Origin: a virus
Virus record (IMG/VR): IMGVR_UViG_2716884766_000001
Location: 124,504 to 188,503 of that record
Direction: 5' to 3' (one strand)
Length of the DNA: 64,000 nucleotides
The translations under genes were made by a program, and so were the position numbers. Positions 3,053 through 6,863 of the stretch are shown piece by piece. Every line of letters starts with the position of its first letter. Within the stretch, counting starts at the first letter, position 1. Below the pieces are notes generated by a model. That model was given only the letters and a program-made list of their open reading frames with translations. It did no database searches and was not told where the DNA came from.

Positions 3053-3242
3053 ATCCCCATTGTATATTGTAAAGGCAACTGCCTATCAGCATGTCGTACG
3101 CATTTATATATTTGTCTTGCTTATTCTCATCATACAACCAACACTGTAAACTTCCATAGTTTGCTCTTGGTACTTCTTGATCGAACCACCAATCGTAAGG
3201 TGTGTATTTGTCTGATGCTTTGTATGTCATTAACAATTCCAA
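3006..3242 (-). CDS. Hypothetical protein
   Basis: 78-aa ORF overlapping both neighbours, aromatic-rich. Confidence 0.55.
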   Translation of the reverse strand: MELLMTYKASDKYTPYDWWFDQEVPRANYGSLQCWLYDENKQDKYINAYDMLIGSCLYNIQWGCGSEENLVRGQIRKP

Positions 3243-3865
3243 GCTCTAAGTGACTTATTTATTCTTGAATCAGGATCGTTAGCAGTCTTCTTAGACGTTA
3301 ACTTCTTCTTCATACCTTTCATTCTAGCACAGAAACTTGCTCTTCGCTTGTTTCCTTTCTTCTTTGATGGTGCTTTCAAGTCAGAGCCAGGATTCTCACG
3401 TTCATAAGACTTGCGTCCCTTCTCATTGAGTCCACCCTCCTTGTTCTTGCCAGACTTCTTAGTCCAAGCAGCACCTTCTAGGATACCATCCTTGTTCACC
3501 TTTGCTCCTTTAGGAATAGGTTTACATTTCTGGTCATCATTACAGAAGTAGTGACCTTCTTTACAGGTCTTCTTACCTTCTTCCATACTTGTTTCGTTCT
3601 TATGCTTCCAAGCAGTAGCATAAGCAATGCCTTCTTTGTCTTTAGGATAGTTCTTTTTTATATGCTTGACCATCCTAGCATACTTTTTTCCTTTTGGTGC
3701 CTCTTCCTTTACAGTTGCACAATCTTTTGTACCGTGAACAGGACACTCATCGCCTTTCTGTGTATGGTTACATGCCTCCTTTACCTTTTGCTTAGGTACC
3801 TTGGGCATTTTCTTGTCCCCTTTGAGGTGCGGTTGAGATCCATCGGCATCGTCGATCTCAGGCAT
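3230..3865 (-). CDS. Basic modular protein with C-terminal DUF6321-like domain; probably the C-terminal part of a frameshift fusion with 3883..5088
   Basis: C-terminus AAWTKKSGKNKEGGLNEKGRKSY...RRASFCARMKGMKKKLTS...DSRINKSLRAWNC is a widespread phage domain (family name from memory); weak RBS; frame stays open back to the A7G site. Confidence 0.75.
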   Translation of the reverse strand: MPEIDDADGSQPHLKGDKKMPKVPKQKVKEACNHTQKGDECPVHGTKDCATVKEEAPKGKKYARMVKHIKKNYPKDKEGIAYATAWKHKNETSMEEGKKTCKEGHYFCNDDQKCKPIPKGAKVNKDGILEGAAWTKKSGKNKEGGLNEKGRKSYERENPGSDLKAPSKKKGNKRRASFCARMKGMKKKLTSKKTANDPDSRINKSLRAWNC

Positions 3866-3882
3866 GATCTCAACGGGACCTA

Positions 3883-5088
3883 CTACTTTTTTTCAGTTAC
3901 CTCTTTACGCCACTCAGCGAACTCTTTAACGCAGTTTGGTACTGACTTACCACCCTTCATCTTAGTTCCTTTTGCTTTATATCCCTTCCAACAACTAGGT
4001 TTCTTAGGATCTCTACCTATGTTCTTACGTGCTGTTGCTAGTGATGCTTCCTCTACTGAGCTAGGAGTACCATCACCACCTAGATCCTTATCTTTCTCCT
4101 CATCTGAATGTGGAATAACTTTTCCAGTAGAAGGATCCTTCTCATGATGCTCCTTTGCCATCGCTTTAGAGATTGCCTTTCTCTTCTTATGAAGATACTT
4201 GTCGCTGCTATCTGTATCACCATCATTGTCTATATCTTTATCCTTTCTGTTCTTAAACTTTTTCTTTACTGCCACCTTGTTGACTGGATCAAGACTCTTC
4301 TCATCAAGAACTTCTTTGTTCTTGTCATCATTGATTGCGTGTTCATGATACTCAGACAGTGTGACGTTGAGTTCGTTGATTGATACGTTCTGCTCTAGAC
4401 CATGCTCAAACATAACATCGTAGTGTGTTACTGTTCCGTCTTCGTCTAGTGTGTGCTGTTCCTTCAGACAGTTTCCTGCTCCCCACTCTGGATGCTCAAC
4501 CTTAGTAGCACAAGCATGCTTAGGTTTCTTGATGGATGGTTTACCCTTTGTACCTTTTGGTTCTGCCATCTTCATGCCAGGTGCGTCACCGCCACCAACA
4601 CCTTTAGCACCGCTAGTGCCTTTAGGATTCTTGTTAGCTGTACCTTCCTTTCCGACTGGTGTCTTCTTGACTGGTGGTACTGGTGAGTACTCGTTAAGCT
4701 GATCTACTACAGCTTGAACTAGGGATTCATGGTTGTCCATCTTATCTTTTTTGGGGTCTGTTGGTATTACTTGCTTGACTTTGACTGATCCTTCTGGTTT
4801 CTGTACCTTCTGACCAGGTGTCAAGGACATAACGTATTGCCTATAGGCATCCGTACCAATTTCAAAGACTTCCTTAACGTCCTTGACCCATGTACGGAAC
4901 TTTGTATCTTCAGCTGTCAAACATATAAGATAGTTAGGACCTCTACGTATGATCTTGCCAACGTGATCTTTCTCAGTGAGTACCCACTCACCTACCTTAT
5001 AAATTTCTTCACGATAATATTGGTCACGGACGTTCTGATCCTTGACCTCTTTGCGTATCGTTTTGAAATCGCTGAATGATTTCATCAA
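3883..5088 (-). CDS. Basic modular putative internal head protein (N-terminal SH3-like module)
   Basis: 401 aa (ATG at 5085); modules RDQYYREEIYKVGEWV..GKIIRRGPNYLIC, HACATKVEHPEWG, KDKDIDNDGDTDSSDKYLHKKRKAI and CWKGY..PNCVKE; own late promoter. Confidence 0.75.
   Translation of the reverse strand: MMKSFSDFKTIRKEVKDQNVRDQYYREEIYKVGEWVLTEKDHVGKIIRRGPNYLICLTAEDTKFRTWVKDVKEVFEIGTDAYRQYVMSLTPGQKVQKPEGSVKVKQVIPTDPKKDKMDNHESLVQAVVDQLNEYSPVPPVKKTPVGKEGTANKNPKGTSGAKGVGGGDAPGMKMAEPKGTKGKPSIKKPKHACATKVEHPEWGAGNCLKEQHTLDEDGTVTHYDVMFEHGLEQNVSINELNVTLSEYHEHAINDDKNKEVLDEKSLDPVNKVAVKKKFKNRKDKDIDNDGDTDSSDKYLHKKRKAISKAMAKEHHEKDPSTGKVIPHSDEEKDKDLGGDGTPSSVEEASLATARKNIGRDPKKPSCWKGYKAKGTKMKGGKSVPNCVKEFAEWRKEVTEKK
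3886..3892 (-). other. Candidate -1 ribosomal frameshift slippery site A_AAA_AAG
   Basis: Minus strand GAA AAA AAG TAG TAG; the -1 frame reads K-V-V-G-P-V-E-I-M into the ORF at 3865; downstream GTTGAGATC/GATCTCAAC stem. Confidence 0.55.
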
Positions 5089-5109: not shown

Positions 5110-5117
5110 TATTTATA
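5110..5117 (-). promoter_or_regulatory. Late promoter TATAAATA
   Basis: Exact T4 late consensus overlapping the stop of the nucleotidyltransferase gene. Confidence 0.75.
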
Positions 5118-5664
5118 ACAGTTCTGCTATTTCATCGAATAAATTCCGCGTCTCTTTAGGTCCCAAAGCCTTTGGTATACCTTTCTTGAACCCTTCAAAG
5201 TCTCCTGCTTCAGCTGCTCTCCGCATCTTTGTACCAGATATAGCGAAGGTATCACCATCAGCATCACGTTCTCCACTAGATATCACTTCTATCTTTCTGA
5301 AGGTGTAGTCCTTACCATTATAGTTCTTGATCCACTGCATAGCCTGCACTCTGTCACTACCTACTACCATGACAGCATCATCATATCCCTGTGACTGTAG
5401 TTCTGATAGTATAGCAACGGGATCTTTAGGACCTGATCTAATTTTCTTTGACAACTGTGGGAACATCTTCTTAGCATAGTATAATTTCCTGTCAGGAGGT
5501 AGAGGATTAGATCCTTTCTTATCTACAGTCTGCGACAAGTAGATATAGTAGTCACACTTCCCTGCCTTGCTTGCTACTGCCTTGAAGTTTTCACCATGAC
5601 CTATCGTTGGAGGTTGGAACCTACCAAAGGTGAAGTACACGCATTTATAATCTATTATCTCCAT
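5113..5664 (-). CDS. HIGH-superfamily nucleotidyltransferase (cytidyltransferase/NMNAT-like)
   Basis: FTFGRFQPPTIGH (HxGH-like), VVGSDRV, ISGTKMR (KMSKS-like). Confidence 0.85.
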   Translation of the reverse strand: MEIIDYKCVYFTFGRFQPPTIGHGENFKAVASKAGKCDYYIYLSQTVDKKGSNPLPPDRKLYYAKKMFPQLSKKIRSGPKDPVAILSELQSQGYDDAVMVVGSDRVQAMQWIKNYNGKDYTFRKIEVISSGERDADGDTFAISGTKMRRAAEAGDFEGFKKGIPKALGPKETRNLFDEIAELL

Positions 5665-6863
5665 TGTTTTGCCAGTGTGAAGTTGATGTAAGAGAACTCA
5701 ATTCTATTTACAAGTTTGATCATGTCTCCGTTGTGATGTAACACATAGCCCTCTGGTGCGGTGACCTTGTACCCCTTGTCAGTCCGTACAAAAGTTCTAA
5801 AAGTTTCAAGGTTATCTAATGCTTCTATGACTATAGTTTTATTCTCTTGTATCTTTCTATAGAGATTGAACATAGCATGGAACGCTTGTTCATTGTCTTC
5901 CAGATATGCTAGACCATCGTATAACATCTTCCTTCTCTCTGCCTGTTTCTGTACACTCTTCATCTTATTAACTTCCTTGCCCATCTTCTCGTGATAGAAC
6001 TCACCCAATGACTTGAGTGCTTTCTTAGGATCAGTGATACTACGAGACGCTTTGATCTCCGCATTGAAGAACTGTTTAAGATATGATGCTACATGAAACT
6101 TCTTATCACCTTTCGTACCCATGTTCTCTACTAGATGATCTAAAAACTTACCAGACTTCTTACACATCTGAGCTATGATTGTGACATTAGCTTCAAACTT
6201 TTTAAGTTTAGATGCGTCAACAGATACATCTGACATCTCTGTATCATTCTCTACTACCACCACGTTGTCAGACTTACTGAACTGTGAAGTAGGAGCACCA
6301 CCCTTTGCTGACATCGTAGTCAGTTCTTTACCAGTGTAGTGTGTATGAAATACTATTCCTATCTTTGCGTTCTTAATCTGTGTGCCTATAGGATGATCTA
6401 CTGGTATACCATAGGTGATAGTGTTAGGTGTAAACGTATATAATTTCTCACCATCTACCTCTTCCTCTTTTACATCTGAAGTGAACAACAGATCTCCCTG
6501 TACAACAGTAGGTATATTAAGATCAGGAAAATACTTGACACAGAATTTTAATTTCTCTTGTAGATCATTACTAGCATCACCGTACATAATATCTACATCT
6601 GCTTCGTCATAACATATCTTTGGTTCTTTATTAAATACTGACTTGGTTCCCGCAAAGAACATACCATTAACAGGATGCTTACCACATACTACAGCGGGAG
6701 CACCATCCCATTTAGTCTGCATGTAACCACTGCTAGGTTTCTTACCTAACATACGAAGCATCTCTTTCATAGCAGACACAGCAGCATCACACCCATCTAC
6801 TCCGTAGTTGAGCATCTCATCTTCTATATGTTCTAAGTGTTTTAGTTGAGTTATGTTTGCCAT
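5655..6863 (-). CDS. Conserved T4-like protein (DUF6267-like) with ligase/capping-enzyme nucleotidyltransferase motifs
   Basis: HLEHIED N-terminus; motif I TKWDG; VQGDLLF; APEGYVL; MIKLVNR. Confidence 0.7.
   Translation of the reverse strand: MANITQLKHLEHIEDEMLNYGVDGCDAAVSAMKEMLRMLGKKPSSGYMQTKWDGAPAVVCGKHPVNGMFFAGTKSVFNKEPKICYDEADVDIMYGDASNDLQEKLKFCVKYFPDLNIPTVVQGDLLFTSDVKEEEVDGEKLYTFTPNTITYGIPVDHPIGTQIKNAKIGIVFHTHYTGKELTTMSAKGGAPTSQFSKSDNVVVVENDTEMSDVSVDASKLKKFEANVTIIAQMCKKSGKFLDHLVENMGTKGDKKFHVASYLKQFFNAEIKASRSITDPKKALKSLGEFYHEKMGKEVNKMKSVQKQAERRKMLYDGLAYLEDNEQAFHAMFNLYRKIQENKTIVIEALDNLETFRTFVRTDKGYKVTAPEGYVLHHNGDMIKLVNRIEFSYINFTLAKQWR

Follow-up and report, generated by a model that had tools for sequence, protein, structure and literature searches.

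The genes that we designate ORF-A and ORF-B, found side by side in T4-like cyanophages, are very probably joined by a programmed -1 ribosomal frameshift of the dnaX/IS3 type. The predicted signal is tripartite, with a Shine-Dalgarno (SD)-like element, the slippery heptamer A_AAA_AAG and a 3' stem-loop, and is conserved across Kyanoviridae and Eurybiavirus. A sequence-only reading of the locus had proposed a shift of this kind and the comparative data strongly support it. Both genes lie on the minus strand of the 64,000-nt stretch analyzed here (the window, C3:124504-188503), and the features of the junction are collected in Table 1. The source contig, C3, is a T4-like cyanophage genome of 189,106 bp and 40.3% GC within a 1.6-Mb assembly of 31-33% GC. 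The other 31 contigs of that assembly (27-37% GC, about 1.4 Mb) are together of Prochlorococcus size, and the presence of C3 among low-GC contigs points to an infected single cell or to binning carry-over.

Table 1. Features of the ORF-A/ORF-B junction (coordinates of the window)
Feature	Position	Strand	Description
ORF-A	5088..3883	-	401 aa; TTG 5088 / ATG 5085; 0-frame product
SD-like GAGG	3903-3900	-	7 nt upstream of the heptamer
Slippery heptamer A_AAA_AAG	3892-3886	-	in phase with ORF-A
0-frame stops TAG TAG	3885-3880	-	immediately 3' of the heptamer
Trans-frame linker GTA GTA GGT CCC GTT GAG ATC (V V G P V E I)	3886-3866	-	read only after a -1 shift
Predicted stimulatory stem-loop	3879-3815	-	from 6 nt 3' of the heptamer; encloses the ORF-B ATG
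ORF-B	3865..3230	-	211 aa; -1 frame of ORF-A; ATG at 3865
DUF6321 domain	3451-3239	-	ORF-B C-terminus, residues 139-209; PF19846

The elements that had been read from the letters of the window were found in place. ORF-A ends GAA AAA AAG TAG TAG, the run being exactly seven A's long (3893-3887), and the heptamer fits the X_XXY_YYZ phase of this gene. After a -1 slip the frame reads AAA AAA, then the linker codons of Table 1 and then the ATG of ORF-B, with no stop, and the GAGG is present at the stated spacing. The 189-kb phage contig contains 7 in-phase copies of A_AAA_AAG among about 173 mechanical ORFs. The heptamer alone is thus weak evidence, and the case rests on its conservation.

Conservation was assessed in two sets of homologues. 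The first was fetched from IMG/VR with ORF-A peptide anchors that excluded the site, and in it the sequence ..GAA AAA AAG is kept in 66 of 66 complete gene ends (P-HM1 included) at protein identities of 38-95%. In this set the AAG is followed by TAG or TAA, or by one sense codon and then a stop, and the flanking codons vary freely (ACT/GCT/TCT/TCA/ACC/AAC; CGT AAA GAG GTA / AGA GCA ATA / CAG GAG ATC). The heptamer is kept even in two relatives, L042 and L070, in which the C-terminal region of ORF-A is replaced. The second set was anchored on S-PM2p142 (38-100% identity) and has A_AAA_AAG in 44 of 45 gene ends; across relatives, the 0-frame stop comes 0-1 codon after AAG. The gene-end counts of both sets and the junction counts given below are phylogenetically non-independent. 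A pattern scan found at least 120 further contigs with the site, S-PM2 and S-RIM32 among them, and the isolates that carry the heptamer are P-HM1, P-HM2, MED4-213, S-CAM3, S-PM2 and S-RIM32. The sole outlier of the second set (L225, IMGVR_UViG_3300008113_003478) has an additional frame break, ATA AAA AAA TGA, about 40 nt before the usual site and upstream of an ..EIEEEKK end; this break is either an assembly error or a second slippery run.

Two other in-phase heptamers, both inside ORF-B, served as controls and are intact in only 14/31 and 5/31 homologues, compared with 66/66 and 44/45 at the junction. For the second of them the I-K-K peptide is conserved in 30/31 homologues although the nucleotides drift. 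Lysine codons hence drift at this divergence, and the nucleotides of the junction heptamer are kept more strictly than the encoded protein demands. The idea that the site is special to this phage or to a DUF6321 fusion did not survive the comparison, since the -1 ORF of most relatives encodes no more than about 45-100 aa.

The sequence that follows the heptamer is likewise constrained. In the relatives of the first set, the sequence that comes next in the -1 frame is in every case homologous to the N-terminal ~50 residues of ORF-B. P-HM2 and MED4-213 have the same arrangement with a -1 ORF of about 48-54 aa, which is unannotated in MED4-213. The distance from AAG to ATG is 20 or 23 nt in the relatives, so that the indel amounts to 3 nt. 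When the junctions were anchored on the ATG, entropies were 1.11/0.33/1.37/1.20/0.82 at third positions of the -1 frame versus 0/0.25/0/0.33/0.54 at second positions, and the peptide encoded upstream of the ATG is conserved as V-x-G-P-V-E-[IV]-M, or as V-A-S-S-S-V-E-I-M and similar. The spacer upstream of the ATG is therefore constrained as a coding sequence of the -1 frame. In the window and in most relatives, a TGA (xxT GAA) closes the -1 frame right before the heptamer, which leaves no upstream start available for this frame.

An SD-like element precedes the heptamer in nearly all relatives. GGAG or GAGG occurs within positions -18 to -4 of the heptamer in 118 of 127 unique junctions (93%) versus 7% of control windows of equal size taken from the same genes. 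The element lies 7-12 nt upstream of the heptamer and is encoded by codons that depend on the clade (TGG AGA, AAA GAG GTA, AAG GAG ATC or AAG GAG GAA). The host 16S rRNA has the 3' end ..CACCUCCU with the anti-SD sequence CCUCC present. The host assembly encodes one tRNA-Lys only, with the anticodon UUU, and ARAGORN detected no tRNA on the phage contig C3. In E. coli, A_AAA_AAG owes its marked slipperiness to the presence of tRNA-Lys(UUU) as the only tRNA-Lys.

Downstream of the heptamer, the minimum free energy (MFE) fold of the window is a long bulged hairpin (-25.4 kcal/mol, z -2.7). A 9-bp stem had been described at this place. The complementary 9-mers exist, but they do not form the MFE pairing, in which the same segments pair differently; that stem is possibly an alternative pairing. 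Folded individually, all of 49 junctions are predicted to form a stable stem-loop. Its start lies at about 6 nt from the heptamer in every clade, and at exactly 6 nt in 23 of the 49. The mean z of these single-sequence folds is -3.3, with 94% below -2, as against means of -0.2 to -1.0 and 0-12% below -2 in control windows taken 100-500 nt upstream. For the p142 family the mean z is -3.1 versus -0.3 in controls. RNAalifold applied to all 49 junctions gave no column-conserved consensus structure across clades, and the 3' partner of the GGUCCY arm is clade-dependent (GGGGAC, CAGGAC, GAGGGAC or AGAGGACC). Because the stems are clade-specific, the evidence for structure consists of single-sequence folds with shuffled and positional controls plus one covariation count at the level of a clade. 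In the S-CAM3 clade, the helix is positionally conserved, with 93% of cells paired (shuffles 85.7±1.0) and at most 64% when the 3' partners were slid along. Compensatory cells number 26 in this clade versus 9.5±2.4 in shuffles, none of 500 of which reached 26, and GC/CG and AU/UA/GC pair switches occur at synonymous sites of both arms. The expectation that relatives would share A7G together with a covarying stem was thus borne out for A7G and, within the S-CAM3 clade, for covariation, but not for a fold common to all clades.

Two ordinary adjacent genes would offer a different account of the junction. ORF-B would be made from its own ATG only, by independent initiation or by termination-reinitiation, and the heptamer would reflect a conserved E-K-K C-terminus. 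The ATG is indeed invariant across relatives, 17-20 nt after the stop, annotators call two genes, and marine cyanobacteria often initiate without a strong SD. The conservation of the ATG means that separate initiation or termination-reinitiation could also occur, or even be the main route. As the sole explanation, we nevertheless consider it very improbable. The codon choice GAA AAA AAG is frozen while comparable K-K codons drift, and the spacer evolves as -1-frame coding sequence with 3-nt indels. In addition, the ORF-B ATG lies inside the stem-loop in the fold of the window and has no conserved SD at a workable distance, the GAGG being 2 nt from the ATG or absent (GTCGAAGTGATG, S-CAM3 type).

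The same downstream frame would also be reached by transcriptional slippage, in which the host RNA polymerase occasionally adds one A to the A7 run, which is present as a homopolymer, and A8 mRNAs encode the fusion with an extra lysine. Metatranscriptome contigs of two runs span the site, where they show A7 without any indel, in agreement with the source contig; these are assembled contigs, which hide minor A8 transcripts. In a further run, X15, contigs break off at the A run (ends at 3894, new starts at 3898), maybe by homopolymer graph branching, which is a weak hint of slippage. Against it, more than 110 loci all have exactly seven A's before a G, without exception in X_XXY_YYZ phase, whereas slippage needs no phase. 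In bacteria, efficient transcriptional slippage usually requires a homopolymer of about 9 nt or longer. Moreover, the SD-like element and a 3' stem at 6 nt are stimulators of ribosomes, and we judge the polymerase to be a very unlikely source of the shift. Finally, A7 runs are error-prone on some sequencing platforms, but a homopolymer error (true A8) or a recently broken fused gene is refuted by the relatives to the point of being negligible, because A8, which had been named as the outcome to look for, occurs in none of them (66 + 45 gene ends and the isolates), A7G recurs in at least six isolate genomes and, across dozens of metagenomes, in more than 110 independent contigs, the RNA contigs agree on it, and, as weak evidence, no in-frame fused protein of more than 370 aa with the ORF-B N-terminal module was found among 5.8 billion proteins.

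A programmed ribosomal -1 shift is hence the reading that we prefer, and its mechanism can be sketched from the anatomy of the signal and from E. coli dnaX and the IS3 elements. Ribosomes translating ORF-A would reach A_AAA_AAG with tRNA-Lys(UUU) in both the P and the A site while the upstream GAGG pairs with the 16S rRNA tail and the stable stem-loop 6 nt downstream resists unwinding. We infer that a fraction of the ribosomes then slips back by one base. Unslipped ribosomes would terminate at once at the TAG and release the 401-aa protein, and slipped ribosomes would read K-K-V-V-G-P-V-E-I-M... through ORF-B to give a fusion of ~618 aa. The abutting stop may add a second route by P-site slippage, as in B. 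subtilis cdd.

Comparable arrangements are known from other systems. E. coli dnaX (tau/gamma) has the identical A_AAA_AAG, an SD-like sequence ~7-12 nt upstream, a stem-loop ~6 nt downstream and a single host tRNA-Lys(UUU). In dnaX, a stop follows almost immediately in the -1 frame, so that the frameshifted product is the shorter one, whereas here the immediate stop is in the 0 frame and the frameshifted product would be longer by 45-260 aa. The gene families are unrelated, and the present site belongs to a phage. The orfA-orfB junctions of the IS3 family (IS911/IS150) share A_AAA_AAG near the end of orfA, a downstream -1 ORF with its own start codon, a 3' structure and, in some elements, the upstream SD-like element. 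They differ in that no mobile element or transposase is involved here and the stop directly abuts the heptamer. In T7 gene 10A/10B and the lambda G/GT tail chaperone, a -1 shift near the gene end likewise yields a minor C-terminally extended isoform in a fixed ratio; the slippery sequences and the genes differ. To our knowledge, T4-like phages do not use the G/GT frameshift. In B. subtilis cdd (CGA AAG beside the stop), an AAG lysine codon also stands directly before the 0-frame stop downstream of an SD-like stimulator, so that slippage in the P site can take place with the stop codon in the A site. The cdd signal lacks a tandem heptamer, and no 3' structure is known for it, unlike the cyanophage site with its conserved X_XXY_YYZ motif and stem-loop.

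ORF-A belongs to phrog_22379 and is a modular, mostly low-confidence or disordered protein, annotated as "possible cytitidyltransferase" in P-HM1/2. Its AF2 model, built on a 29-sequence alignment, has a pLDDT of 43.8, too poor for a fold search, and depicts what may be a string of small beta modules in low-confidence linkers. Sequence searches of the PDB with ORF-A and ORF-B gave no meaningful match, and the protein atlas returned only the own family plus a weak Dockerin lead for a DxDxDG loop. This D-x-D-x-D-G-D loop (DIDNDGDTD, window 4213-4239 on the minus strand, ORF-A residues about 284-292) has D284, D286, D288 and G289 invariant and, judged by its residues and the weak Dockerin_1 lead, resembles a calcium-binding loop. 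The earlier designation of the product as a basic head protein found no support with respect to a role in the head.

In phrog_395, from other phages, the N-domain of ORF-A and the neighboring cytidylyltransferase form one protein. The window phage and P-HM1/2 encode the N-domain and the rest of ORF-A as one ORF. In S-PM2 and S-CAM3 the N-domain is a separate gene of 91 aa, mis-annotated as NrdB/RNR subunit, that shares 26 nt with the gene after it, in the +1 frame (L207:2018-2993, S-PM2p141/p142; L089:594-2058, S-CAM3 genes 180/181). A DUF6267 protein (402 aa with a KWDG ligase-like motif) and an HxGH cytidylyltransferase-like protein, both at window 5113-6863 on the minus strand, are fused in other phages (phrog_455, 764 aa). 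The fusions of DUF6267 with the transferase and of the transferase with the ORF-A N-domain suggest that these genes probably work together.

Residues 1-50 of ORF-B match the short -1 ORF of P-HM1/2 (phrog_32143), and further modules are added after them. The assignment of a DUF6321 domain was confirmed by Pfam (PF19846, E 2.7e-23, 82.8 bits versus a cut-off of 28.5). The predicted fusion of about 618 aa would continue from the junction with an acidic MPEIDDADG linker, a CxH...CPVHG...C motif and DUF6321, and its junction peptide would be, for example, VVGPVEIMPEIDDADGSQPHLK. In Bellamy gp123 and in phrog_28131, the motifs CWKGY..PNCVK and CxH..CPVHG and DUF6321 occur in a single ORF in the same order as in the proposed fusion. 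Gene 123 of Synechococcus phage Bellamy (L005:178-2034) encodes a 618-aa mosaic protein adjoining the large terminase, with DUF6321 at its end. Many of these short Cys/His and basic modules recur in it one after another, and they are shuffled widely among cyanophage genes. A DUF6321 gene also lies between gp16 and gp17, as one ORF in P-HM2 (PHM2_112). Its MED4-213 counterpart (L003:2336-3198, CPMG_00012/00011) is split by a frame change in the A-rich stretch CATAAAAATAAAAGAAGAACG; the split may stem from a sequencing error or mark a second case of recoding or of decay. The genes connected by the frameshift site in S-PM2 are p142 and p143, and their neighborhood is syntenic (cytidylyltransferase, GC534, then GC424 and GC537).

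We found no publication that describes the site in the literature on cyanophage or cyanomyovirus, S-PM2 and P-HM2 frameshifts and on DUF6321, or in the 2016 recoding review and the PRFect paper. The cyanomyovirus site is so far an unannotated case of the known dnaX/IS3-type signal. Cyanomyoviruses are among the most abundant viruses of the ocean, S-PM2 and P-HM1/2 are model systems, and a conserved, very probable recoding event has remained unannotated in them: the -1 ORF was annotated from ad hoc GTG or ATG starts or, in MED4-213, not called. With the finding, a syntenic locus (T4-like gene clusters 534/535 and 842/843) receives a corrected annotation, and the fusion protein becomes a concrete, testable gene product.

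The shift likely serves to make a core protein and a C-terminally decorated form of it in fixed proportion, and the decoration differs between lineages, from about 45 to 260 aa. Tentatively, and with rather low confidence, the cassette of SD-like element, heptamer, stop and stem together with the conserved V-E-V-M-P-E-I/L-D-D peptide of the junction may be regarded as a portable recoding joint, at which cyanomyoviruses would swap C-terminal modules (a 45-aa basic tail, the CxH/CPVHG knuckle or DUF6321) to produce lineage-specific, sub-stoichiometric decorated isoforms of the same core; the shift rate might then report the translational state of the host (tRNA-Lys modification, energy or light). 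It appears that selection favors the use of a full dnaX-like tripartite signal on picocyanobacterial ribosomes, and more than 120 natural variants of it are at hand, in which the stimulatory structure turns over and the site stays fixed.
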